Assembly: GCA_964247135.1 (NCBI GenBank) | Contig: CAXTTL010000076.1 | Location: forward strand, 4,880 to 19,239 | DNA: 14,360 bases | From: an uncultured Deinococcales bacterium | Lineage (GTDB): Bacteria > Deinococcota > Deinococci > Deinococcales > JAAFIG01 | Reading direction: 5' to 3' | Shown: piece after piece, positions 1,376 to 14,360 of the stretch | Position numbering within the stretch: the first letter of the stretch is position 1 | Layout: the number at the start of each line of letters is the position of its first letter | The notes under the pieces: model-generated | Seen by the model: only the letters and a program-made list of their open reading frames with translations | Databases searched by the model: none | What the model was told of the DNA's origin: nothing | Translations under genes and position numbers: made by a program

Positions 1376-1423
1376 TCCAACGCTACACAAAGCCGTGCTT
1401 TCCGACGCTACATAAAGCCGTGC
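1376..1423. repeat. Imperfect direct repeat (23 bp, period 25) duplicating the USP stop-codon region
   Basis: TCCAACGCTACACAAAGCCGTGC (1376-1398) vs TCCGACGCTACATAAAGCCGTGC (1401-1423), 21/23 identical. Confidence 0.85.
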
Positions 1424-1860
1424 GCCGCTTGAACCCGCACCGGAACAATCTGCACCGGAATGCTCGAGCTGCCAGCCACGGCTTGCGCCCCCGAACCCAG
1501 TTGCAGACGTTCAATGCCCTCCCGTCCGTGCGTGCCCATGACAATCAAATCGGCTTTTTCGGTCTTCGCCACCTCGAGAATGAGCTTTGCAACACTGTCA
1601 CTGCTGCTGACCAGGCGAATCTGAGGTTCAAACCGTGCCTGCTTGGCAAGTTCGGTCAGCCAAAAGCCTTCTTGGCTCAATTCGTCAGATTCATTTTGAA
1701 CATGCAACAACGTTTCATTTTGAACATGCAACAACGTTTCATTTTGAATATGCAGCAACGTCACCCGAGGACCGAGCAACCTCGAGAGGTCAAAAGCGTG
1801 TCTGGCAGCAATTTGGCTGCACGGGTCATTGCCGAGGGGAATCAGGATGTGTCGGTACAT
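1408..1860 (-). CDS. Universal stress protein (single USP domain)
   Basis: N-terminal MYRHILIPL, RVTLLH strand, and ADLIVMGTHGREGIERLQLGS with an intact G-2X-G-9X-GS motif, then IPVQIVP. Confidence 0.92.
   Translation of the reverse strand: MYRHILIPLGNDPCSQIAARHAFDLSRLLGPRVTLLHIQNETLLHVQNETLLHVQNESDELSQEGFWLTELAKQARFEPQIRLVSSSDSVAKLILEVAKTEKADLIVMGTHGREGIERLQLGSGAQAVAGSSSIPVQIVPVRVQAAHGFM
1690..1761. repeat. In-frame 24-bp tandem repeat x3 inside the USP gene
   Basis: TTCATTTTGAACATGCAACAACGT at 1690-1713 and 1714-1737 (identical) and at 1738-1761 (2 mismatches). Encodes TLLHIQNE-TLLHVQNE-TLLHVQNE. Confidence 0.95.
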
Positions 1861-1938
1861 GAATCAGCCTTTAAGAACAACAACCCAATTTGTTAATGAA
1901 TCGAAAAACGCTGTAGGGTAAGAAATATTTATAAGGTT

Positions 1939-1970
1939 ACTGTGAAACCCGAGCATTACAAAGCCATTAC
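1939..1970 (-). promoter_or_regulatory. Putative SARP-box promoter for the USP gene: GTAATG-N5-GTAATG-N9-CACAGT
   Basis: CATTAC at 1954-1959 and 1965-1970 (11-bp period). The -10-like CACAGT on the minus strand is at 1939-1944. Same geometry as three other sites in the window. Confidence 0.6.
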
Positions 1971-1999
1971 CGTGAATTCTGATTGTGCTGCAAGGCGTT

Positions 2000-2031
2000 G
2001 TAATGGTTTTGTAATCTCGAGGTTGAAAACT
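2000..2031 (+). promoter_or_regulatory. Putative SARP-box promoter for the regulator (autoregulation): GTAATG-N5-GTAATC-N9-AAAACT
   Basis: GTAATG 2000-2005, GTAATC 2011-2016, AAAACT 2026-2031. Confidence 0.6.
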
Positions 2032-2080
2032 GAACAGACAACGATTCAGACACGTCAATTCAGAAACCCGAGGTCAGACC

Positions 2081-2914
2081 ATGAACAAACTTGAGATCAA
2101 CACCCTTGGAAAAAGCGAAGTGCTGATAGACGACGTTCCTGCCCAGTGGCACGCCCAAGCCGCCCAAGAATTGTTCTTTTACCTGCTCTCGCACGTTGAG
2201 GGTTGCCGCAAAGAAGAAATCCTCGAGCAACTCTGGGGCTTAGAACCAGACGCAAACGCCAACAACCGTTTTCGGGTGACCGTTCACCGCGTTCGCACGG
2301 CTCTTGGGCGATCCGACGCGCTGCAAGAAGAATTTGGGCGCTACCGCCTCTCGAGCGAAGTCTTGATGGCGACCGACGTGCATCAATTGTATTTGACCCT
2401 CGAGCAAGCCAACCACACCAGCGAACCCGCCGTGCGACAGCGCCTGTATCAGCATGTCTTAAATTTGTACCACGGCGATTACCTGCCTGGCGAGCACGCC
2501 GATTGGGCGCGTGCCGCCCGCGAAGAGTACAAATCGGCTTACGTCCGTGCGGCGCTCGAGTTGAGTTTGATTTATTGCGATCACGGTTCTTGCGATGCGG
2601 CGGTCGGCGCTCTGGTGAGGGCGCTAAAAGCCGATCCGTTTATCGGCGAAAATTACCATCAAAAATTGATGACCTGTTTAAGTGTGGTCGAAGGCAAGTA
2701 CGCCTCGATAGAACATTACCGACGGTTTTTAAACTTCTTGCGCGAAGAACTCGACGACACGCCGATGGGCGAAACCAAGGATTTGGCAGAACGCATCAAA
2801 GCCGGTGAAAGCATCTGCAACCGCCGACCAAATGAGCATTTAACCCTCAATTGCCCATTGACCTCGGATGGTTCTTGCCCAGGCGTGTTCGGTGAACTGA
2901 TCAAACTCACCTAA
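2081..2914 (+). CDS. SARP-family (OmpR-like wHTH + BTAD) transcriptional regulator with Cys-rich C-terminus
   Basis: LEINTLG..EVLID start, ELFFYLL, EEILEQLW, FRVTVHRVRTALG recognition helix, BTAD motifs LYHGDYLPG..DWA..RE, ALKADPF.E.YHQKLM and ELDDTP..ET. GAGG SD upstream. Seven Cys at 42, 166, 171, 199, 246, 258 and 266. Confidence 0.88.
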   Translation: MNKLEINTLGKSEVLIDDVPAQWHAQAAQELFFYLLSHVEGCRKEEILEQLWGLEPDANANNRFRVTVHRVRTALGRSDALQEEFGRYRLSSEVLMATDVHQLYLTLEQANHTSEPAVRQRLYQHVLNLYHGDYLPGEHADWARAAREEYKSAYVRAALELSLIYCDHGSCDAAVGALVRALKADPFIGENYHQKLMTCLSVVEGKYASIEHYRRFLNFLREELDDTPMGETKDLAERIKAGESICNRRPNEHLTLNCPLTSDGSCPGVFGELIKLT

Positions 2915-2932
2915 ACTCAAGTCGCAATTGAG

Positions 2933-2962
2933 AACCTCGAGCGACTTGACGCTCGAGGTTTT
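2933..2962. terminator. Hairpin between convergent genes, probable (bidirectional) intrinsic terminator
   Basis: 11-bp perfect inverted repeat AACCTCGAGCG (2933-2943) / CGCTCGAGGTT (2950-2960) with a 6-nt loop, running into TTTT on the + strand. Lies between the stops at 2914 and 2970. Confidence 0.7.
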
Positions 2963-2969
2963 GTGATCT

Positions 2970-4610
2970 TTAACGCAAGATCGTCAGCAGCAACTGCGCA
3001 ATCAAAATTTTGCCAATCATCGCCATCGGGTACACGCTCGAGTAACCCATGTTTGGCAAGTCATTTTGGGCACGTTCATTGGCAAAAGCCAGAACGGCGG
3101 GTTGGGTTTGAATGCCCGCCAGCATTCCAGTCAACATCGGAAACGAAATTTTAAGGACTTTATAACCCACCCAAAGCGTTAAAAAAGCCGTGAAACACGT
3201 GACCAAAGCGCCGATCAAAAACAACAGTATGCCGCCGCCACCCGCAAAGGTGCTGACAAACGCAAAGCCCGAACGCGTGCCGACGCCCGCCAGAAACAAA
3301 ATCACGCCCAGTTGCCGCAAGGTCAAATTGGCGCTGTGCGGCAACTGCCAGACCACCGAGCCGGTGCGACCGAGCGCCCCAAAAATCAAACCCACAATCA
3401 ATGGACCGCCCGCAATGCCAAGTTTTAAACTCGAGCCACCAGGCAACGGCAGACTGATCGCGCCGAGCAGCAAGCCCAGCGCAATGCCGACGCTGAAGGT
3501 CATGACATCAATCTCCGAGATGGCGCGGTACGAATCGCCCAGCGCTTTTGCCACCCCGTTCATCTGATCTGGCGCACAGACCACCCGCACCCGATCTCCC
3601 AACTCGAGTTTGAAATCTTTACTTGGCAGCAAATCCACATCGCCGCGCCCGACCCGCGTGATGATCGCGCCAAAATGTTGTGGCAACTCGAGTTGGTTTA
3701 AGCTCTTTCCCGCCACGCTGGGGTTGGAAACCAGCACCCGACGAAAATCGAGGTTCGAGCGGTTTAACTCGAGTGCCTCTAAGCTGGGTTCGCCCAGCTC
3801 GTTCATGACGGCGCCCACCTCAGACGGCGAACCCACCAAACTGATGACGTCGCCAGGTTGCAGGCGCGTTTGGGGACTGACCAGACTGAGGTTATTCGCG
3901 TGTTGATACCGTCCAAACACCACATGCCAACCGCGTTCTTTGGCAATTTGTGTGATCGGCTGGCTCTGAAAGTTTGATGATGTCACCACCACACTCTGAT
4001 GCGTGATGCCCTCAAAAGAACCCTTCAACTCTGAAGCTTTGCTCGCCTCGAGCCTTTGATCGATACGCCAGACGCGCTCGAACAAACCGATTGCCAGCAG
4101 CATTCCAATCACCCCAATCGGGTACGCCACCGAATACGCCACGACCGGTTCGACCAAAACCTGCTCGAGAAGCGCTTTGGGGGCGAGAGACTTGAGCGTC
4201 TCGAGTGCCCCAGCGAGGGCTGGGGTGTTGGTTAAAGCCCCTGCGAACAAGCCAGCGGCACTGGTAGACCTGAGTTTGAAAAGCAGGCTGGCAAAAACCA
4301 CCACAGCGCCCGCCGCAAACAAAATTCCGAGCGCGAACAAATTATCGCGCAAACCCTTGCGCCGCAACGCCGCAAAAAAACCAGGTCCGCTCGAGAGACC
4401 AATCGTGTAGACAAAAAGAACCAAACCAAACTGATACACGACTTCTGGCAACTTCATGTCGCTCGCCAGCGAACCAAACACCAAACCCGTGAACAACACC
4501 GCCGAGACCCCAAGCGAAAAACCAGCCAATTTCAAACGCCCAATCGGGTAGCCAATTCCAGCCACCAAAAACAACAGCAACAACGGACTTTGCTCGAGCA
4601 ACCCCAACAT
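2970..4610 (-). CDS. AAE-family (AspT/YidE/YbjL) transporter with two TrkA-C (RCK_C) domains
   Basis: Duplicated membrane domains with GLVLFVYTIGLSSGPGFF, GLFAGALTNTPALA, YSVAYPIGVIG and GLLLG..LG.AGGPLIVGL.LG, LRQLGVILFLAGVG, G.LAGIQTQPAVLAFA, GYSSVYP. Soluble central region with LQPGDVI and LELGDRVRVV. AAGGAG SD. Confidence 0.92.
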   Translation of the reverse strand: MLGLLEQSPLLLLFLVAGIGYPIGRLKLAGFSLGVSAVLFTGLVFGSLASDMKLPEVVYQFGLVLFVYTIGLSSGPGFFAALRRKGLRDNLFALGILFAAGAVVVFASLLFKLRSTSAAGLFAGALTNTPALAGALETLKSLAPKALLEQVLVEPVVAYSVAYPIGVIGMLLAIGLFERVWRIDQRLEASKASELKGSFEGITHQSVVVTSSNFQSQPITQIAKERGWHVVFGRYQHANNLSLVSPQTRLQPGDVISLVGSPSEVGAVMNELGEPSLEALELNRSNLDFRRVLVSNPSVAGKSLNQLELPQHFGAIITRVGRGDVDLLPSKDFKLELGDRVRVVCAPDQMNGVAKALGDSYRAISEIDVMTFSVGIALGLLLGAISLPLPGGSSLKLGIAGGPLIVGLIFGALGRTGSVVWQLPHSANLTLRQLGVILFLAGVGTRSGFAFVSTFAGGGGILLFLIGALVTCFTAFLTLWVGYKVLKISFPMLTGMLAGIQTQPAVLAFANERAQNDLPNMGYSSVYPMAMIGKILIAQLLLTILR

Positions 4611-4648
4611 GATGTCTCCTTGTGAAACTCGAGATGCGCAAACTTTTT

Positions 4649-4773
4649 CCCTCTCATCCCCAACCCTTCTCTCCTGGGAGAGAAGGGAGCTTTATTGCTC
4701 TACACGTGTGGCTCGAGGGGTTTTGTCCTTCTCCCTGCGGGAGAAGGTGTCAGCGAAGCTGACGGATGAGGGG
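4649..4773. repeat. REP/CIR-like intergenic palindromic element (CCCTCTCCC/GGGAGAGGG type)
   Basis: Hairpins CCCTTCTCTCC/GGAGAGAAGGG (4664-4687), CCTTCTCCC/GGGAGAAGG (4727-4747) and GTCAGC-GAA-GCTGAC (4749-4763). The ends CTCATCC (4653-4659) / GGATGAG (4764-4770) are complementary. Confidence 0.7.
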
Positions 4774-4774
4774 A

Positions 4775-6634
4775 TTACTCTGGTGCCAAACCCCAGTGTT
4801 CGGGCGCACGCCAGAGGCTCGAGAGGATCAGTTCGCGGATAAAGATAAATTCTTTGGGCAGCTTGTCGTAAAGTTTAAAGAACAATTCGTCGTGACCGAC
4901 GATCTCTCGCTGCCATGCTTCACGCTCAACGCTCATCAGGTTTTCAAAATCGTCCCTCGAGAAATCAAGTCCGCGCCAATCGATGTCCTCATAGGTTGGC
5001 ATCCAACCCAGTGGGCTTTCGATGCTGGCGGCGTGTCCTCGGGCGCGTTCGACAATCCATTTTAAAATACGCATGTTCTCGCCAAAACCAGCCCACAAGA
5101 AATTGCCGTCCTTGTCTTTGCGAAACCAGTTGACGTTAAAGATACGCGGCGGGTTGTGAATGCTGCGCCCGAAGTTCAGCCAGTGGTTGAAGTAATCGCC
5201 CATGTGATAACCGGTAAAGGGCAGCATGGCAAACGGGTCGCGCCGCACCTCACCGAGTTTGCCTGCGGCGGCTGCCGTCATTTCGCTGCCCATGGTGGCG
5301 GCGGCATAAACGCCGTAATTCCAGTTGAAAGACTGGTACACCAACGGCACGACGCTCGAGCGGCGACCCCCGAAAATAAAGGCACTGATCGGCACGCCAG
5401 CCAGATTATCGGCTTCTGGGTCAATGCTTGGGCATTGTGAAATGGGCGCGGTGAACCTCGAGTTGGCGTGCGCGGCTTTGCGTCCGCAATCGGGCGTCCA
5501 GTCCTGCCCAGTCCAGTCGATCAGGTGCGCGGGCGGGGTTTTGGTCATGCCCTCCCACCAGATGTCGCCGTCATCGGTCAGGGCAACGTTGGTGAAAATC
5601 GTGTTCTTTTCAATGCTCGCCATCGCGTTCGGGTTGCTCGAGGTGTTCGTGCCAGGGGCGACGCCGAAGAAACCATTTTCGGGGTTGATGGCGTAAATTT
5701 TGCCGTCGCTGCCAGGTTTGATCCAGGCGATGTCATCGCCGACGGTGGTGATTTCCCAACCCTCGTCCAAGAATAGCTTGGGCGGAATCAGCATCGCGAA
5801 ATTGGTCTTGCCGCAGGCGCTCGGGAAGGCTGCCGCAACATAGGTTTTTTCGCCCGTTGGGTCTTTGACGCCCAGAATCAGCATGTGCTCCGCCAACCAG
5901 CCCTCGTCCCGCGCCAGAACGCTGGCGATTCGCAGCGCAAAGCATTTTTTGCCCAACAGCGCGTTGCCGCCGTAGCCGCTGCCGTAACTCCAGATGCTGC
6001 GTTCCTCTGGAAAATGCGAGATGTACTTGTCGGTTTGATTGCAAGCCCAGGGCACGTCTTTTTGCCCAGGCTCGAGCGGCATTCCGACGCTGTGCAAGCA
6101 ATGAACAAAATCGTTGTCGCCCAGCACCTCGAGCACCTTGTTGCCCATTCGGGTCATGATGCGCATGGAGACTGCGACATAAGGCGAGTCCGAAATTTGC
6201 ACGCCAATGTGCGCGATGGGCGAACCGACTGGTCCCATGCTGAACGGAATCACGTACATGGTGCGACCGCGCATCGAGCCGTCGAACAACGGTGTCAAAA
6301 CCGCTTTCATTTGCTTTGGAGCCATCCAGTTGTTGGTCGGACCCGCGTCGGATTTGGCGAGGCTGCAAATAAAGGTTTTCTCCTCGACTCGAGCGACATC
6401 GTTCACGCCTGAGCGTGCCAAAAAACTGTTCGGACGCAAGTTTGGATTCAGGCGAATAAACGTGCCGCTCTCGACCATCTGCTCGCACAAGGTGTCGTAC
6501 TCGAGTTGCGAGCCGTCGCACCAATGAACCTTGTCTGGCTTGCAGAGCGCTGCGGTTTCTTTGACCCACTCGAGCAAACGGGCGTTGCTGACAAAACTTG
6601 GCGCTGAACTGAGGGGCTTATCGGCAATCAACAT
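4775..6634 (-). CDS. pckG: Phosphoenolpyruvate carboxykinase (GTP) (619 aa)
   Basis: Signature motifs [74 protein letters not shown] and VNWFRKD. Start moved to the ATG at 6634, which has an AGGAGG SD. Confidence 0.97.
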
Positions 6635-6688
6635 GGTTTTCCTCCTGGGGTTCTCGAGCATCCATCTCGAGAGAACCTTCACCAGCCA

Positions 6689-6720
6689 AGTCTGGAGGAA
6701 CGGCATTACCGAGGCATTAC
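6689..6720 (-). promoter_or_regulatory. Putative SARP-box promoter for pckG and the AAE transporter: GTAATG-N5-GTAATG-N9-CAGACT
   Basis: GGCATTAC at 6702-6709 and 6713-6720 (11-bp period). The -10-like CAGACT on the minus strand is at 6689-6694. Confidence 0.62.
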
Positions 6721-6740
6721 GAACTGCGCTCGAGGGACTG

Positions 6741-6772
6741 GTAATGCCCTGGTAACGAGCAAAACCTAAACT
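6741..6772 (+). promoter_or_regulatory. Putative SARP-box promoter for CBS-USP: GTAATG-N5-GTAACG-N9-TAAACT
   Basis: GTAATG 6741-6746, GTAACG 6752-6757, TAAACT 6767-6772, then an AGGAGG SD and the ATG at 6790. Confidence 0.65.
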
Positions 6773-6789
6773 TTGTTCAGGAGGTTCTT

Positions 6790-7200
6790 ATGCAAGTCCG
6801 CGAATTCATGACCACCAACCCCGTCACGGTGCATCCAGACACCACCATGCCCGCCGCCAGCGAATTGATGAAAAAAGGCGGTTTCAGACGCCTGCCGGTG
6901 GTTGACAACCACCAAAAAGTTGTCGGCATCATCACCGACCGAGACGTGAAACACGCCATGCCCTCGGACGCGACCTCGCTTTCGATCTGGGAAATCAATT
7001 ACCTGGTCGCCAAAATCAAGGTCGGCGAAATCATGTCGCACCCCGTTCATTTTGTGCTCGAGGATGCCAGCCTCGAGTACGCCGCCGAACAAATGCTGAA
7101 ATACAACATTGGCGGTATGCCCGTCATGCACGGCGATCAACTGCGCGGCGTGATCACCACCACCGACGTACTGCGAGCCTTTGTCGGTCACAGAGAGTGA
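6790..7200 (+). CDS. CBS-domain pair protein (AcuB-like Bateman module, no ACT domain)
   Basis: VREFMTTNPVTV, RRLPVVD..VVGIITDRD, KVGEIMS.PV and IGGMPV..LRGVITTTDVLRAF. The PSDATSLSIWEINYL linker is typical of AcuB-like proteins. AGGAGG SD. Confidence 0.92.
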   Translation: MQVREFMTTNPVTVHPDTTMPAASELMKKGGFRRLPVVDNHQKVVGIITDRDVKHAMPSDATSLSIWEINYLVAKIKVGEIMSHPVHFVLEDASLEYAAEQMLKYNIGGMPVMHGDQLRGVITTTDVLRAFVGHRE

Positions 7201-7207
7201 GGGCAAG

Positions 7208-8074
7208 ATGTTCAAGCATATTTTGATTCCGGTGATGCCCGAACCATGCAGCGAACAAGCCGCGCTGATGGGTTTGGACTTTGCCAAACGCATCAAGGCT
7301 CGGGTGACCTTTACTTACGTCATGACCAAACTCGACACGACCACCTACGCTCGAGGGTTGCTGGGCACCTGGAAAAACCGCGCCGTAGAAAAAGGCGTGA
7401 TTAGCGATGAGCTGCTTTTGCAAAACCTTGACATGCACCTTGGCGATGCGATTGCCAAGGAAGCCAACCACGAAGATTACGACCTGATTTTGATGGGCAC
7501 CCACGCTCGAGAAGGCTTGAATCGGCTGCTGCTGGGCAGCGTTTCTGAGCGCGTGGTTCGGATGGCACACATTCCAGTCATGGTTTCCAGGGCGGCAACC
7601 AACGCAGAATTTAAACGAATTCTTGTTCCCCTGGACAGCACCCTCAGCAGTCTTCAAATCGTCGAGAGCGCCAAAAAACTGGCGCTCGAGTTGCCCGCAA
7701 AATTGCACTTTGTTCACGTCGTACAGGACGTTCCAATGCCGTTTAGCGATTCGTTTGGAACATACGGCGCTTTTGATGCCGCAGGCTTGTCAAAATCATT
7801 CGAGGAAACGGGGAAGTTAACACTTCAAAAAGCCGTGGCGCTGTGCCCAGAATTAACGCCCACAACCAGTATTTTGCACGCCAACACCAGCCAGATTCAC
7901 AACGTTATTTTGGGCAGCGCCAAAGACGTTCACGCCGATCTGATCCTCATGGGCACCCACGCTCGAGCTGGCATGGAACGCCTGTTGCTGGGCAGTGTGA
8001 GCGAGGGCGTGGCGCATCACGCCAACGTGCCAGTGTTGTTGATGCGCCCGACGATGGTCAAAGCTGAAGCCTGA
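7208..8074 (+). CDS. Tandem (two-domain) universal stress protein (288 aa)
   Basis: MFKHILIPV...DLILMGTHAREGLNRLLLGSVSERVVR..IPVMV, then FKRILVPLD...DLILMGTHARAGMERLLLGSVSEGVAH..VPVLLMR. The ATG at 7208 is 7 nt after the CBS stop, suggesting an operon. Confidence 0.93.
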   Translation: MFKHILIPVMPEPCSEQAALMGLDFAKRIKARVTFTYVMTKLDTTTYARGLLGTWKNRAVEKGVISDELLLQNLDMHLGDAIAKEANHEDYDLILMGTHAREGLNRLLLGSVSERVVRMAHIPVMVSRAATNAEFKRILVPLDSTLSSLQIVESAKKLALELPAKLHFVHVVQDVPMPFSDSFGTYGAFDAAGLSKSFEETGKLTLQKAVALCPELTPTTSILHANTSQIHNVILGSAKDVHADLILMGTHARAGMERLLLGSVSEGVAHHANVPVLLMRPTMVKAEA

Positions 8075-8376: not shown

Positions 8377-10941
8377 TTAACCTGGAACGCCAACGCTAAT
8401 CAGCACGGTGTCTGTGCCTGTTAACCCCTCATCGTCGGTGATGGACAATTTGAGCGTCAGGAAGGCGGCTGGTGAGGCGCCATAACCGTAGTCGGCAGGG
8501 CTGAAACACGCAAATGGAATGTTGAGCAATTTGCAAGTTTTGGGCGTCACCACGGTTTGTGTGCTGCCAATTTTGATGCTCCAGACAACAGTGTATTGCG
8601 TGGTTGGCGTACCACCTGGGTCATCGTTGGAGTAACTGAGACGAATGGCAGTGTTGGGATTCGGAAATGTTTGTCCCGCCGTTGGCGATAAAATTTTTAC
8701 TGCTGGCGGTCCCGCCAAGGGTTTGGTGGTGACGCTGATCACCACGCTTGCCGTCCCCGTCAAACCGTAGGCATCTGTCCCTTTCAGCGTGATCGTGCGC
8801 TGACCGGTCGTGGCAAATTGCGCCGTAAATTCGCAGCCCGCTCCAAGCACGTCGCTCGAGTTGCTCGATTTCCAGGTCAGGGCGGTGCAGGGCAATTCGC
8901 CAAAAATCCCGTCGCCGTCAATTGAGCTGCCCTTGAACGTGACCTGTGTGCTGTTCGCCCAGATCACAGCGCCAGGCAATGGCGCGTCAATGAAGACTTT
9001 GGGCGCTTGGTTGACACCCGTAACCGTGATGGTGGCGCTGGCGGTTGCGCCTTTGTCATCGGTGGCGGTTGCCGTAATCTTGCGCGTGCCCGGACTGCCA
9101 AAACCGTAATTGATGCTCGAGCCTGTGCCGATGGTGCCGTCAATATCCGAAGTCCAAACCACGGTTGGCGCGGGTCCGTCCGCATCGTTGGCATTGGCGG
9201 TGTAGGTGGTCACGGTCGCGTATGGGAAGCTCGAGTTTGTGGTGGGCGCGGTGATTTGAATGCTTGGAATTGAATTGGGCGTGCTCTTAAATTCGGCGCT
9301 GGGTTTGGAGGCAAAGACCGTGACTTGCGTGAAATACTCTTTTGCCCAAGTTACCGGCACGTAAATATAGCCCGCATCGCCAAAGCAGTAACCCCAAGAA
9401 TTCTTGACGATAAAATATCCACCGCCAGAATTGCTCGAGGCATCCTTGACGTTGCCCGGCAGGTTTGGGTGGGCTTGAATATCGCTATCGGAGACAAAGC
9501 CCACCACTTGTACGGCGTGTCGCCCTCGGTTTTTGATGTCGGTCAGGGTGGTGATAAAGCCGTTTGGGCTTGGGTGGTCAAAACCAAAATTCACCAGGAT
9601 TCCGGCGACCATCGGGTGTCCGTGACGCAACAAGGAACGCATTTCGTCCACGGGCAAACTGCCGGTGCTGTACCAGTCGTAAATCGTGTCCGGTTCGGAT
9701 TCTTTAAACTTTTCACCCGTGGCGGGCGGCATGTGATACCCACACACTGGGTCACCGCCTGGCGGGTAGGTGCAAATTTCTTTTAACTGGTGCGAGGCGT
9801 CCGAGCAAAATTCGCTGTAACCAACACAGCTCGAGCTGTAATATTCGTCATTTTCGTGATCGACCCGCTTTCTGGAGGTGTTGTAATTCCAGACTTGCTC
9901 GAGTGGCAGCGCAAAATTCTGCTCGAAAAAATCCTCGGCACGGTTGGGCAGTATTGTGCCGTCCCCGTACTCTCGAGCGTCCCAGTCCGAGGCAATCTTG
10001 CCCCACAGGTATTGTTCGGAGACATTCACCCAACGGCTTTTTTCAATCGCAATCCGAGTCTCGAGCGCCCCCGCCAACGCAAACGCCACGCATGACCCGC
10101 GACGTCCTTGGGCTTTGACGCTGGTGGCGTAAAACTTTTGTCGCCACCAAAAATTTTTTGCCAAGCCAAAATCGGTTGCGGTGTTGCACTCGTCGTGTTC
10201 ATGGTCGATGCCTTTGCCAGCGCCCTCCTCGAGGTTTGCCGAGGCTGGGTAACCCGCAGGTTTGGCATCGGGCGCAATGCTGCGCGATTTTAAGCTGATC
10301 GCTCGAGCGTCCAAGAGTTCCAATGGATTGTCTTTTAAGCGCTCACCCAAGGCTTTTCTGGCGTTTAAAATCGTCTCGAGGTTCGCACCCGCAAGACTGT
10401 CGGGCGTGACCAAACCTGTTCGTAAATTTTCGGCAAGCTCGTCGTAACCGGTGCGGTAAATCCTGATTTGACCGCTCAAATCTTCAAACTTTTTTCGGGA
10501 CTCGAGCATGTCGGCGTACAAAGCACGTTTGCCGTCGGTCACAACTTCAAACGCACCTTTGTTGCCTTGAACGGTAATCAGGTAATTGCCGTCGGGCAAG
10601 ATTTTTAACGTGCCATCGGTGGTGTCAGGCTCGGTCAGCGCTTTGTTGTAGGCAGGAGATTGCGCTGCGAGGCGTTTCACCTCATCGGTATCGGCTTTGA
10701 ATTTTGCGGCGGTGGCTGCTTTGCGCTCGGCACGTAATTTGAGGGTGTCTATCGAAAAGCCTTCGGTGGTGCTGAGCGTCTTAAATTCTTCTGGCGTGAC
10801 CACCTGGGCATCTGTGGGAACCGTGCCACCAAAAGTGTTTTCGGGCTTGAACAACGGATCGGTTTGGGTTGGTGGGTCGGTTTGACAGGCAACCAAAATG
10901 ATCAACAGCACAGCCAGCAAGAACTTCCAAAGTTTTTTCAT
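8377..10941 (-). CDS. Lipoprotein C1A (papain-like) cysteine peptidase with C-terminal Ig/PKD-like domains (854 aa)
   Basis: Lipoprotein signal MKKLWKFLLAVLLIILVA-C. Catalytic motifs VKAQGRRGSCVAFA (Gln, Cys), VSEQYL, RHAVQVVGF (His) and YFIVKNSWG..FGDAGYIY (Asn). Three Thr-rich Ig-like units follow (WTSDIDG..GTRKITATATDDKG; GQRTITLKGTDAYG; LKLSITDDEGLTGT). GGAGG SD before the ATG at 10941. Confidence 0.9.
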   Translation of the reverse strand: MKKLWKFLLAVLLIILVACQTDPPTQTDPLFKPENTFGGTVPTDAQVVTPEEFKTLSTTEGFSIDTLKLRAERKAATAAKFKADTDEVKRLAAQSPAYNKALTEPDTTDGTLKILPDGNYLITVQGNKGAFEVVTDGKRALYADMLESRKKFEDLSGQIRIYRTGYDELAENLRTGLVTPDSLAGANLETILNARKALGERLKDNPLELLDARAISLKSRSIAPDAKPAGYPASANLEEGAGKGIDHEHDECNTATDFGLAKNFWWRQKFYATSVKAQGRRGSCVAFALAGALETRIAIEKSRWVNVSEQYLWGKIASDWDAREYGDGTILPNRAEDFFEQNFALPLEQVWNYNTSRKRVDHENDEYYSSSCVGYSEFCSDASHQLKEICTYPPGGDPVCGYHMPPATGEKFKESEPDTIYDWYSTGSLPVDEMRSLLRHGHPMVAGILVNFGFDHPSPNGFITTLTDIKNRGRHAVQVVGFVSDSDIQAHPNLPGNVKDASSNSGGGYFIVKNSWGYCFGDAGYIYVPVTWAKEYFTQVTVFASKPSAEFKSTPNSIPSIQITAPTTNSSFPYATVTTYTANANDADGPAPTVVWTSDIDGTIGTGSSINYGFGSPGTRKITATATDDKGATASATITVTGVNQAPKVFIDAPLPGAVIWANSTQVTFKGSSIDGDGIFGELPCTALTWKSSNSSDVLGAGCEFTAQFATTGQRTITLKGTDAYGLTGTASVVISVTTKPLAGPPAVKILSPTAGQTFPNPNTAIRLSYSNDDPGGTPTTQYTVVWSIKIGSTQTVVTPKTCKLLNIPFACFSPADYGYGASPAAFLTLKLSITDDEGLTGTDTVLISVGVPG

Positions 10942-10962
10942 GATCAACGACCTCCGCGCTCG

Positions 10963-11001: not shown

Positions 11002-14000
11002 TTAAAGTTCGAGCAGGTCGCGGTATTTGGTGGCAAAGCTTTTTTGAAGTTCTGGAAATTCCTCGAGTGAAGTTTTCATCTCGAGCAAGATAATTTTGGT
11101 TTTTGCTCGAAACTCGAGGGCGTATTGAGGCTCGAGCATGTCAATCAAAACACGGCGCAACTCGAGGCTGGCGAGGCATGGTGGGCTGGTTTCGAGCACC
11201 TGGAATGCAGCTTCGAGGTCTGGCTGTAAATCCAGAGTGTGTTGTGCTTTCAACTCGAGGCTCAAGAGTTGCAGTTTGGCTTCTGGGAAAACTGAAGGTT
11301 TTAAAGACTCGAGTTGCGCAAGGGTTTTGTCCGATTGTTCAGTTTGCAACCAAAGGGTTGCTTGGATCAGCCAAACTTCGTCTTTTTCTTGCTGTTCACT
11401 GCGTCCAAAATGCTCAAACGCCACGCCAAGATGCTGGGCAGCATTTTGAGGGTTTTGAAGCTCGAGTTCGGTTTTGGCAAGCCCAGTCTCGAGCGAACAG
11501 ACATAAGCCATACTGCCACTGTTCAGGGCAAGTTGAAGCGCTTGCTGGTACAACGCCTTGGCTTGAATGGTTTGCCCAATTCCGAATAAAAATCCTGCCA
11601 GGTGATTCTGCGCCAGAATTTCTGAAGCAACACCTGCAATCTTGGCTTGCTCAAGTGCCATTTGAAAGCTGGCAAACGACGGTCCAAGTTGACCATTCAA
11701 GGCGTGCCATTTGGCTTGCAAACACAACAAACTGCTGCGCCACAAGACATCTCCGCTCTTGGTTGCCAACATTAAACCTTGTTCAATATTTTGACTGGCT
11801 TCTTTGAAACAAAACAGGCGCAAATGGTTGTACCCCAACCAGGTCAGGGGAAAAACCTGTTCTGGGACATGCCCAATTTTTTGTGCCAACTCGAGCGAGC
11901 TTTTTAGTTTTTGAATTGCACCCAAGCCATCACCTCGGCTGGTGGCAATACGGGCAAGAGCAGTCAACGCCTCGAGTTTCCCAGCCAGATTTCCCGTGTT
12001 TTCCAGAAGGGCTAAACCCAATATGGTGTGCTGTTCAGCACTTTGAAAATCACCTTCGTAAAGGGCAATCGCTCGCAATTTACTGTGAATTTCACCGAGC
12101 GTCTCAGGCTCGAGCAGGTTTGCATTTTTAAGGGCAAAATGCAGGTCGGCTTTGCCCGTTTGCAATTGACCAATCCTGAACAATCCACTGCCCCGCTCGA
12201 GCAATGCCCAGGCAAGCTCACCAGGTTCGAGGTTCTGCGTTAAAAGTTGATTGATGGTCTGGATGGCTTGAGCATGTTGTTGCAGGCTGTTGTAATGTTG
12301 TGCCAACCTGAGTTGCGTCGCAATTTTCAAAGGCGGGTCGTTTAAGCTTATTGCAATTTCACGCATCGTTTCGAGCGCCCCGAGACGCTCTGCTTGCCGT
12401 CCGAGTGCTTCAAAAAGTTGCGCCCGAGCCAAATGAATTTCAAAGCGAACTTTGTCGCTTGCCCCGTTCAGTGCCAACTGATACTGCGCCAGTGCCTCCG
12501 TGTTGGCGTAAACCCGTCTGGCGGCTTCGGCGGCTCTCAGACGCCACGCCACCGCCTGCGCCGCCCGTCCCGCCCGCTCGAGGTGATCGGCAATGCTGGC
12601 TGGGGCGGCGTTCAGTCTCTCGAGGCTGGCAGCCAGTTTGGAGTGCAGCAATTTTTTTCGCGCCAAGCTCAGGTTCTCGGCAAGGGCGCTGCGCATCAGG
12701 TCGTGGCTAAACCTGTAACCTTCCCCAAATGGCTCAAGCACCCGCGCCGAGATTGCCAACTCGAGGGCTTCCAGCCCTTCCCAGTCGGACAATGCGGTTG
12801 CGCCACGCAGCGTCTCGAGGTCAAAGCCGTCGTTGGTTAAACTCGCGGCTTCCAAGAGTCGCCCCGTTGCCGCGCCCAAAATTTTGACGCGCCGCAAAAC
12901 CACTTCGCGCACGCTTGGCGGGATCGGCAGTTCGTCAGTCTGGTCTTGAATCCAGACCCCTTCTGGGGTCGGTCGCAAAAAATTTGCTTCGAAGAGCGCC
13001 CTGATCGTCTCGAGCGCAAAGAACGGATTGCCGCCAGTTGCGCGGTGCAAATGCTGTCCAAACAAACCGGTGCCGCTCGAACCGATCAGTCTATTCACCA
13101 ACTCGAGCGTGTCGGTTTCTTGCAAGGCTCCGAGTTCGATGGGTTCGGCTTGGCTGGAGAGGATAAAATCTTCGAGTTTGGTCTGGGCATCAATCGAGAG
13201 TTCATTGGCGCGAAATGACAACAGCACACGCTTGTCGCTCGAGACAGCCGCAAATCGCCCAGCCAGGTACAGCACGGCTTCAAAGCTGGCGCCGTCAAAA
13301 AATTGCAGATCATCCACCAGCAAGATTGGCACGTCCTGCAAAGCCAGCATCACAAATTCGGCAAGCGCCTTCAAAAACCTCAAACGTTCCTCGGGCGAGG
13401 AGATTGGGGCGGGCAACTCGGGCGCCAAACTTGGCACGAGCCGCGAAAGTTCGGTTTGTATCCAACTCGGCAGCAACAGGGTTTCGGTCCGCTCGAGCAG
13501 GTTTTGCAGGCTGCGCGTCAAGGTCGAGAACGGCGCAACCGTGTCGCCTGGTCGTCCAATAATGTGCTCAAACGCAGCTTGTGAAGTTGCAAACTCGAGC
13601 ATCAAGCGCGTTTTGCCAACGCCTGGTTCGCCATAAAGCACGATTGGTTTTCCAGCCTGCCAAGCCGCTTGCATTTGCGCCCATGTTGCAGATCGTCCAA
13701 TCAGTGGCACAGTCAAGAATTGCGCTTGGCTCAAAGGCTGGGCTTTCACTTGAGGCTCGAGCGTTTTGGTGGCGCGAATGCTGGCTGCCAGCTTTAGCGT
13801 TTCGGGCAAGGGCGTCAGACCCAATTCCGTCTCGAGCATGGTCTTACATTGTTCAAACTGCAACAACGCCGCCTCACGCATTCCGAGCAAGGCGTACAAA
13901 CGCATGACATCGCGGTGGGTGCGTTCCTGAAACAAGTTCAATTCAAGCAACCCATGATGAATCTCGAGCGCCTTGCGCCACTCGCCCCTGGTTTCAAGAA

Positions 14001-14360
14001 GCTCGGCACGCTCGAGCATGGCTTGTCGCCGTGAACGCTCAAAGCGCTCTCGTTTTTGGGTCAACCAGTCATGAAATTCGGTCGCGCCCTCGAGTTCCAA
14101 ACCCTCAAGCAACACGCCGTTGTAAAAGCCGAGTGCCTGTTCGACCTGACCAGCCTCGAGTGAGCGCTCAAAAAATCCGACATCGGTCTGAAACCCAGCT
14201 CGCAAGCCCAAACTGTGCTCAGACACCTCGAGTTGGTCGTTCAAGGCGGGCGAATCGTTTTTCAGGCGGTGCAATTCGCGCCGCAAATTGCGCCGTGCCG
14301 CCTCATCGGTCACTTCGGACCACAACAAACCCGCCAGTTTAGATCGTGGTGTCAAACCCT
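11002..14360 (-). CDS. Large SARP/BTAD-AAA(STAND)-TPR transcriptional regulator, 5' end outside the window
   Basis: wHTH remnant (PRSKLAGLLWSE..ARRNLRRELHRL), BTAD (YNGVLLEGL..FHDWL..RERF; ELGLTPLPET), PLIGR, Walker A GEPGVGKT, Walker B LLVDDLQ, ATGGNPFF, YRFSHDLMR, then a long helical TPR-like C-terminus. The frame stays open to the window edge. Confidence 0.9.
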   Translation of the reverse strand, partial: GLTPRSKLAGLLWSEVTDEAARRNLRRELHRLKNDSPALNDQLEVSEHSLGLRAGFQTDVGFFERSLEAGQVEQALGFYNGVLLEGLELEGATEFHDWLTQKRERFERSRRQAMLERAELLETRGEWRKALEIHHGLLELNLFQERTHRDVMRLYALLGMREAALLQFEQCKTMLETELGLTPLPETLKLAASIRATKTLEPQVKAQPLSQAQFLTVPLIGRSATWAQMQAAWQAGKPIVLYGEPGVGKTRLMLEFATSQAAFEHIIGRPGDTVAPFSTLTRSLQNLLERTETLLLPSWIQTELSRLVPSLAPELPAPISSPEERLRFLKALAEFVMLALQDVPILLVDDLQFFDGASFEAVLYLAGRFAAVSSDKRVLLSFRANELSIDAQTKLEDFILSSQAEPIELGALQETDTLELVNRLIGSSGTGLFGQHLHRATGGNPFFALETIRALFEANFLRPTPEGVWIQDQTDELPIPPSVREVVLRRVKILGAATGRLLEAASLTNDGFDLETLRGATALSDWEGLEALELAISARVLEPFGEGYRFSHDLMRSALAENLSLARKKLLHSKLAASLERLNAAPASIADHLERAGRAAQAVAWRLRAAEAARRVYANTEALAQYQLALNGASDKVRFEIHLARAQLFEALGRQAERLGALETMREIAISLNDPPLKIATQLRLAQHYNSLQQHAQAIQTINQLLTQNLEPGELAWALLERGSGLFRIGQLQTGKADLHFALKNANLLEPETLGEIHSKLRAIALYEGDFQSAEQHTILGLALLENTGNLAGKLEALTALARIATSRGDGLGAIQKLKSSLELAQKIGHVPEQVFPLTWLGYNHLRLFCFKEASQNIEQGLMLATKSGDVLWRSSLLCLQAKWHALNGQLGPSFASFQMALEQAKIAGVASEILAQNHLAGFLFGIGQTIQAKALYQQALQLALNSGSMAYVCSLETGLAKTELELQNPQNAAQHLGVAFEHFGRSEQQEKDEVWLIQATLWLQTEQSDKTLAQLESLKPSVFPEAKLQLLSLELKAQHTLDLQPDLEAAFQVLETSPPCLASLELRRVLIDMLEPQYALEFRAKTKIILLEMKTSLEEFPELQKSFATKYRDLLEL

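Follow-up and report, generated by a model that had tools for sequence, protein, structure and literature searches.

Does the small BTAD regulator encoded at positions 2081-2914 act only on its neighbours, or does it govern a wider programme, and to which signal would it respond? The question is raised by a 14,360-nt stretch (the window) of contig CAXTTL010000076.1 from an uncultured Deinococcales bacterium (assembly GCA_964247135.1; the homologs likewise point to this order), in which two divergent intergenic regions each carry two oppositely oriented copies of one promoter element. An original prediction had described four identically built promoters and assigned the six genes around them to a compact regulon under a Cys-rich one-component switch. 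The element, GTAAYG-N5-GTAAY, indeed occurs exactly four times in the window (1955-1970 and 6705-6720 on the minus strand, 2000-2015 and 6741-6756 on the plus strand), and 200 shuffles of the window averaged 0.01 matches and never exceeded one. All four copies share the 11-bp period, and in each a hexamer (CACAGT, AAAACT, CAGACT, or TAAACT) lies 9 nt downstream of the second GTAAYN. As argued below, the 2081-2914 protein probably acts as master activator for a low-oxygen/dormancy regulon in the Deinococcales.

The regulon is not a compact six-gene unit, as had been proposed, but is genome-wide and order-wide. We define a strict site as a GTAAYG-N5-GTAAY core with NANNNT at offset 9. The genome contains 21 cores, of which 17 are strict, and the 13 other offsets gave 0-3 hexamers each. 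Two order-4 Markov genomes contained 2 and 0 strict sites; with a relaxed pattern, the genome has 22 sites versus 3 in each of them. Contig C6 holds 10 sites. Its boxed genes encode USPs (one unit runs on to LDH), PFOR with a DHODH-like flavoprotein, a CoA-disulfide-reductase-like enzyme, a DsbA-like protein, and a multiheme cytochrome c, and SufU and a SufS-like gene lie within the site cluster. On C98, boxes precede DoxX-phosphoketolase-nitroreductase and DUF6544. The sites on C278 and C34 (GTAACC/GTAACC) may belong to another factor. At locus L005 (G000:C278), three Tat-type Rieske genes stand in tandem; the second is preceded by a GTAACC/GTAACC box, and an OmpR-family response regulator adjoins them.

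The geometry of the box is equally strict elsewhere. Near regulator genes, 115 cores have a period of 11, and any other period from 8 to 15 occurs 0-3 times; NANNNT follows at offset 9 in 90 of 116 such cores. Genome-wide, cores of period 12 are nearly as frequent as those of period 11 (38 vs 40). As they equal the other multiples of three, they were dismissed as codon periodicity, and near regulators there are none. Among 170 distinct sites, an ATG is located 6 nt behind the hexamer in 18 and 8 nt behind it in 9, with 0-4 at each of the offsets 0-5 and 10-16. A second peak follows at 17-20 nt (16, 18, 9, and 13 sites), and GGAGG is found at 7-8 nt in 30 cases. With leaderless ATGs most frequent 6 nt behind it, the hexamer is taken to be the -10 element, as originally predicted. 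The pattern agrees with the leaderless TANNNT promoters known from this phylum, as described in the accessible parts of two reports (PMC4007540, PMC12340547). T is the first -10 base in only 31 of 110 sites, which would be expected of promoters that depend on an activator. Position 7 of the repeat is C in 65% of the sites, and when GTAAYGC is counted as a heptameric unit, its spacing to the -10 element equals the eight nucleotides of AfsR. There is no sign of a third repeat farther upstream (7 of 170 sites vs 9 and 3 at the adjacent offsets). The consensus motifs of FNR, CRP, and Rex matched 1, 0, and 0 times around 22 promoters, the sole FNR-like match with one mismatch, and these factors were rejected as an explanation.

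Next to the box itself, its distribution points to the regulator. We surveyed 200 Deinococcota genomes, some incompletely covered in sequence, and counted as ortholog a best hit with E < 1e-30; the best-hit E-values divide at a gap from 7e-34 to 4e-20. At least two strict sites were found in 73 of the 86 genomes with the ortholog versus 4 of the 114 without it (Deinococcus only, 49/60 vs 2/23; Meiothermus, 14/14 vs 0/4), and at least one in 84/86 versus 36/114. The expected co-occurrence of box and ortholog is thus seen for multiple sites, whereas single sites do persist without the regulator, 18 of the 36 genomes owing theirs to one Thermus locus with a C/C variant of the box. The reversed pattern, as a control, gave 21 hits versus 401 for the true one. 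DoxX orthologs of regulator-negative genomes carry no box (0/10, even at one mismatch; G019, which has a site, lacks 32 kb of sequence, and whose DoxX does carry the box, was left out), and six boxed DoxX genes were found in regulator-positive genomes. G089, without an ortholog, has three boxes, and beside the one at ba3 a remnant of the regulator, 30 codons long, survives. In G146 (no ortholog, three sites), the boxed CBS gene is shortened to 50 codons, and G134 has kept a boxed four-CBS gene, with no regulator found. At L090:15830-15970, a relic of the regulator's last BTAD helix stands directly at the ba3 promoter, where the box overlaps the relic frame on the opposite strand.

Could another protein read the window promoters? 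The candidates are a paralog on C359/C9, a MalT-like/STAND BTAD protein, or an OmpR-family response regulator, with the 2081-2914 gene as a passenger. The paralog shares 50% identity and the recognition helix (SSNRFRVTMCRLR) with the window protein and lies beside a boxed USP, interrupted by contig ends (G000:C359:1-606 and probably the end of G000:C9); several further BTAD proteins are encoded in this genome, and in Thermus a promoter of identical spacing (GTAACG-N5-GTAACR) stands beside an 860-aa TPR protein. Yet a distant BTAD match turns up in each of the 83 Deinococcus genomes and only the ortholog-positive ones have multiple boxes, and in minimal regulons the single site lies directly behind the regulator gene. 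We consider a different reader very improbable. The paralog, a member of the same family, alters the wiring and not the system; the prediction that a single regulator reads the window boxes is supported by the co-occurrence of box and ortholog and is qualified by this second copy.

The Thermus boxes were rejected as members of this regulon because of their C/C repeats, T-led -10 elements, and different neighbouring regulator. Eighteen of 30 Thermus genomes have one site, and no ortholog of the window regulator was found in the 30 (E 1e-10). All 18 sites are GTAAC/GTAAC with a T-led -10, versus GTAAT in 97 of 110 sites of ortholog genomes. Seventeen precede a FabH-like gene, usually leaderless and in an operon with an acyl-CoA ligase. 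The operon is divergent from a large gene, which in the two cases examined encodes the MalT-like TPR protein of about 860 residues, with a weak C-terminal winged helix-turn-helix (wHTH) match. The promoter type GTAACG-N5-GTAACR-N9-TANNNT occurs in L040-L042, L157-L171, L178, and L179. Judging from these features, the Thermus boxes likely form a separate local system of SARP geometry in lipid metabolism.

The structure of the 277-aa regulator is consistent with such a box. Its AlphaFold model (pLDDT 91) comprises a wHTH and a BTAD domain from residue 4 onward. Foldseek returned only AfsR (E 3.5e-10) and EmbR (E 2.7e-9) below E 1e-3, with TM 0.67-0.72 and probability 1.0 over 245-255 columns, and a profile match to AfsR covers positions 5-241. 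The assignment as a SARP/OmpR-type regulator is therefore sound. Pfam detects BTAD (E 3.3e-13) and, weakly, Trans_reg_C, and the NCBIfam model for AfsR (NF053617) scores 51.6 bits, below its cut-off of 1430. Receiver, ATPase, and GAF domains were not found in the protein (no Response_reg at E 0.01), which rules out the label "Two-component SAPR response regulator" of its homologs. In a profile search, about 40 clusters (50% identity) made up a compact family, and large MalT-like proteins came next, with a C-terminal SARP module; matches in the ESM Atlas were generic SARP/BTAD clusters only. Orthologs exist in cultured species, namely D. geothermalis DSM 11300 (ABF44318.1) and D. ficus. The recognition helix spans residues 58-75 (about 2252-2305), and its motif NRFRVxxxRxR (N62-V66, R70, R72) is kept in 201-204 of 204 rows (counted with duplicates); in a divergent clade, 38-40 of 40 rows have it. 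Together with the co-occurrence, this makes it very likely that the regulator binds the box directly.

How would it activate? AfsR binds as a side-by-side dimer on direct repeats, which sit upstream of the -10 by eight nucleotides and overlap the -35, according to the available text of PMC11301090. By analogy, two copies of the window protein would bind the GTAAYG(C) repeats head-to-tail on one helix face. The repeats of 11-bp period would substitute for a -35 element, and the bound regulator would recruit sigma-A RNA polymerase to the weak -10 (NANNNT, mostly without the first T) 9 nt downstream. From the weak -10 and the fixed spacing, we infer activation by polymerase recruitment as a tandem dimer. 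Proposed targets are the USP, CBS, and DoxX genes; where present, the high-affinity ba3 oxidase; and the fermentative or anaerobic enzymes PFOR, LDH, PEPCK, PEP synthase, phosphoketolase, and NrfHA. The regulator may also activate its own gene in a positive feedback. Self-activation had been part of the original prediction and is backed comparatively, in that 25 of 57 distinct regulator genes have an exact box in the 260 nt upstream of them, versus 4% of random stretches. It does not extend to the eight Cys-less Meiothermus-type loci (L025, L029, L035, L128, L132, L133, L135, L138), where the box overlaps the regulator's own leaderless -10 (GTAA-CARAMT-6 nt-ATG) and repression, hence negative autoregulation, is predicted.

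The targets suggest the signal. We collected the 79 first genes behind strict sites of ortholog-positive genomes from 30 returned loci and 40 regions picked blind to gene. Pfam assigned 17 to CBS, 16 to USP, 6 to DoxX/DoxD, 3 to regulators, 2 to cytochromes c, and 2 to PEP synthases; 18 matched none at E 1e-7. Across Deinococcus, CBS is the most frequent target family. Boxed targets from other sets are ba3 subunit II, bacterioferritin, Hsp20, P-type ATPases, ferredoxin, nitroreductase, SufS, a NarK-like MFS protein, multicopper oxidase, and a phosphoribosyltransferase/hydrolase, and NrfHA-like genes lie within a boxed unit. Beside the regulator, the AAE transporter is found in 5 and PEPCK in 4 of 72 loci, many of which have only 1.5 kb flanks. 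Here PEPCK is boxed, as claimed, with the AAE transporter probably in the same unit, but both are lineage-specific members; CBS, USP, DoxX, and the ba3 oxidase form the core.

The ba3-type oxidase, identified by its match to 1ehk (E 2e-193), is a high-affinity, low-oxygen enzyme. In Deinococcus, it is present in 54 of 60 regulator-positive versus 3 of 23 regulator-negative genomes; in 35 of the 54, no more than 4 kb separates it from the regulator, and the box lies upstream in all 30 of the best-scoring ba3 loci examined. PFOR is oxygen-sensitive. With the NrfHA-like proteins and multiheme cytochromes, these genes bear out the low-oxygen character that had been attributed to the targets, and we favour low oxygen as the signal with moderate confidence. 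In the available part of PMC7674623, one D. geothermalis mutant at OD 4 showed a joint drop of a cytochrome c oxidase cluster (Dgeo_0015-0019) and cytochrome bd, which fits joint control of low-oxygen oxidases but is no test of this regulator.

The same activator and box might answer instead to the energy or growth state (stationary phase, adenylate charge) through a USP/CBS partner, with the Cys residues binding structural zinc. USP and CBS are nucleotide-binding families and head 33 of the 79 target units. In 44 of 72 loci, a USP gene, in most cases divergent, is found no farther than 1.5 kb from the regulator, and the Meiothermus loci that lack the Cys core but keep their regulons are among them. 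An energy signal would, however, leave the oxygen-related nature of the condition-specific targets (ba3 oxidase, PFOR, NrfHA-like and multiheme cytochromes) and the tracking of the regulator by ba3 in Deinococcus without a reason, and we regard it as unlikely.

For oxygen as the signal, the conserved Cys residues offer a candidate sensor. In the TPR register, the alpha6-alpha7 turn lies between C166 and C171, and C199 is on the next helix (alpha8), facing C171. By that register, these three would be near surfaces equivalent to the AfsR dimer surfaces. Among 204 rows, C166 is present in 175, C171 in 187, C199 in 202, C246 in 182, C258 in 176, and C266 in 162. The divergent clade has the first four in 40 of 40 rows and lacks C258 and C266. 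In a quick tree, the four core Cys are found in the deepest branches and are absent from six outgroup rows. This conservation suggests a Fe-S or thiol sensor. The simplest reading would be a four-Cys metal site closed by the tail, although the conservation would fit Fe-S, zinc, and disulfide alike. Our best guess for the switch is a metal centre on C166, C171, C199, and C246 with an O2-labile cluster; Fe-S as the cofactor is a tentative assignment. As a side observation, the four core Cys are combined with a C-terminal GAF-like domain in a subfamily comprising L096:1235-2641, L097, P0123, P0127, P0128, and P0138-P0147.

The Cys residues could also work as a switch of the thiol-disulfide, NO, or zinc-release type, in which case redox or nitrosative stress and not O2 depletion would be what the regulon answers. 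There are up to six of them, which exceeds the need of one cluster, and the targets include the CoA-disulfide reductase, the DsbA-like protein, SufS/SufU, nitroreductase, bacterioferritin, and multicopper oxidase. We think this quite unlikely, as neither catalase, peroxiredoxin, thioredoxin reductase, nor flavohemoglobin is among the scanned first genes behind boxes, and the O2-sensitive PFOR would be an odd target for oxidative induction.

Several observations weigh against the low-oxygen master regulator as proposed. On the protein side, Pfam support for the wHTH is by itself under the cut-off (16.9 vs 26.2 bits), and the tail holding C246-C266 is poorly modelled (pLDDT ~50). The Meiothermus clade has Y/H, W, and C at the core positions and no tail Cys, thus keeping C199 only; a few other rows have also lost the set. 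Meiothermus genomes nevertheless average seven sites. Hence, the Cys site is dispensable for reading DNA and is not a universal sensor, and the predicted Cys-rich one-component switch is plausible where the four Cys are conserved but not in general. On the genome side, the 36 ortholog-negative genomes with a strict site remain a burden: no relic accounts for those of G146, G134, G019, G104, and G183, several of which are incomplete in sequence, and conversely G169 and G191 have the ortholog and zero strict sites. As the genomes are kin and the regulator is often linked to its targets, the tallies overstate independence. The second paralog could read the same box, and the Thermus case implies that other BTAD-type proteins may read related boxes, a caveat for single-site assignments. 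No ba3 oxidase match was found in this genome (84% complete), and the D. geothermalis oxidase cluster depends, directly or not, on a LysR gene, as stated in the part of PMC7674623 available.

Weighing these points, we regard the regulon prediction as strong and the oxygen-sensing chemistry as a hypothesis. In full, the proposal is a new class of one-component O2 sensor, in which an O2-labile Fe-S cluster in the BTAD TPR repeats (C166/C171 at the alpha6-alpha7 hairpin, C199 on alpha8, and C246 on a tail that folds back) would gate SARP tandem dimerisation and drive a DosR-like dormancy programme independent of FNR and DosR, Meiothermus having lost the cluster, shifted its own box onto its -10, and switched from positive to negative autoregulation. 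We put this forward as possible but somewhat doubtful in its entirety.

How does the system compare with known ones? FNR is a one-component low-oxygen activator with four Cys ligands, a CRP fold, and a palindromic box (TTGAT-N4-ATCAA). If the Fe-S reading holds, the window protein would have these four Cys ligands in common with it; unlike FNR, it has no CRP fold and its box is no palindrome. DosR is a phosphorylated two-component regulator with a LuxR HTH, heme sensor kinases, and a palindromic box, from which the one-component regulator on direct repeats differs in both domains and box. The likeness to DosR is one of output. The M. tuberculosis regulon also comprises Hsp20, a CBS protein, ferredoxin, a P-type ATPase, a NarK-like MFS protein, and a phosphoribosyltransferase/hydrolase, and these families recur behind the boxes here. 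In the accessible text of PMC11876180, the minimal mycobacterial dormancy regulon consists of USPs and the Acg nitroreductase, and USPs and an Acg-type nitroreductase are common to both.

The protein resembles AfsR of Streptomyces, small SARPs, and EmbR of mycobacteria (PDB 8k60, 8hvr, 2ff4) in its OmpR-type wHTH and seven-helix BTAD domain. Its invariant residues P186, G189, E190, H193, and V203-Y207 align with the linkers of AfsR dimer interface III, as far as these are described in the available text (PMC11301090). Direct repeats of 11-bp period, 8-9 nt upstream of the -10, are likewise a SARP trait, here deduced computationally. It differs from AfsR and EmbR in identity (~22%), in box sequence, in lacking an ATPase/TPR/FHA extension, and in its conserved Cys set. 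Unlike those of AfsR-type SARPs, its targets concern respiration, fermentation, and dormancy rather than antibiotic clusters, and it belongs to a different phylum. The closest functional precedent, compared by description and of the same phylum, is DnrS of Thermus thermophilus. According to the accessible parts of PMC5748679 and PMC7694296, Thermus lacks FNR, and DnrS is a BTAD protein needed for anaerobic expression, oxygen-sensitive by an unknown mechanism, with an unknown binding site and not amenable in vitro. Its GAF domain is N-terminal and its BTAD domain is C-terminal, and it serves nar/nic clusters in these sources, whereas the window protein has no GAF and its long relatives carry theirs C-terminally.

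No published description of the regulator, box, or regulon was found, in keeping with the original prediction, in a literature search whose coverage left out most subscription papers and RegPrecise; the available text of two D. geothermalis RNA-seq papers (PMC7674623, PMC8533066) does not mention the regulator. Thus, by comparison, the activation mechanism would be of the known SARP type and the output DosR-like, and the search turned up no account of their pairing, of the box, or of the Cys site. Deinococcus and its relatives, usually seen as plain aerobes, gain a predicted low-oxygen master regulator with a precise box, ba3 oxidase included. A BTAD protein of 260-280 residues with four candidate ligands in cultured species makes BTAD-based oxygen sensing directly testable. 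If true, SARP-type activation would reach from secondary metabolism into core physiology, and the promoters could serve as inducible ones for Deinococcus engineering.

The coordinates within the window are collected in Table 1. All gene identities given originally (USP, BTAD regulator, AAE transporter, PEPCK, CBS, tandem USP) were upheld by Pfam or NCBIfam.

Table 1 Promoters, genes, and candidate ligands around the regulator (positions in the window; starts are predicted)
Feature	Position	Strand	Remarks
Promoter 1	box 1970-1954 (GTAATG-gcttt-GTAATG), -10 CACAGT 1944-1939	(-)	to USP; predicted start ~1932
Promoter 2, putatively autoregulatory	box 2000-2016, -10 AAAACT 2026-2031	(+)	to regulator; predicted start ~2038
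Promoter 3	box 6720-6704, -10 CAGACT 6694-6689	(-)	to pckG and transporter; predicted start ~6682
Promoter 4	box 6741-6757, -10 TAAACT 6767-6772	(+)	to CBS-USP; predicted start ~6779
Single-domain USP	1408..1860	(-)	Pfam Usp E 1e-25; divergent from regulator
277-aa BTAD regulator	2081..2914	(+)	Pfam/NCBIfam; winged HTH and BTAD/TPR
Core Cys of regulator	C166 (2576), C171 (2591), C199 (2675), C246 (2816)		accessory C258, C266
AspT/YidE/YbjL (AAE) transporter with TrkA-C	2970..4610	(-)	Pfam/NCBIfam
GTP-dependent PEP carboxykinase (pckG)	4775..6634	(-)	NCBIfam PRK04210 above cut-off
Stand-alone CBS pair, AcuB-like	6790..7200	(+)	nearest solved structure 5awe, E 1.5e-40
Tandem USP	7208..8074	(+)	Pfam Usp x2

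The box of promoter 1 is retained upstream of the orthologous USP in L104-L107. At promoter 4, the predicted 11-nt leader includes AGGAGG, and its distance of 17-18 nt from hexamer to ATG is the commonest in the regulon. PEPCK is directly downstream of a box also in L047, L100, L104, L105, and L267, and pckG starts at the Shine-Dalgarno-led 6634 and not at the in-frame ATG at 6706, which lies within the box. The AAE transporter is probably co-transcribed downstream of pckG; it follows PEPCK by about 15 nt in L100, and a strongly folding 165-nt spacer separates the two in the window. Strongly folding hairpin clusters are located there (4611-4774, -68 kcal/mol) and at the convergent ends of the regulator and transporter genes (2915-2975), and are probably dispersed hairpin repeats of the genome or a terminator. 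The USP at 1408-1860 contains three tandem 27-nt copies (LLHxQNEx, about 1691-1765), and close relatives have 144 residues versus its 150. A 1117-aa BTAD-AAA-TPR (STAND) regulator (11002-14355) is directly followed by a papain-family (C1) lipoprotein with PKD repeats (8377-10947), and no GTAAY box was found around this pair in the window. Finally, positions 66-851 encode a 261-aa protein that is probably an outer-membrane beta-barrel and has no Pfam family; L100 has a similar gene close to the regulator.

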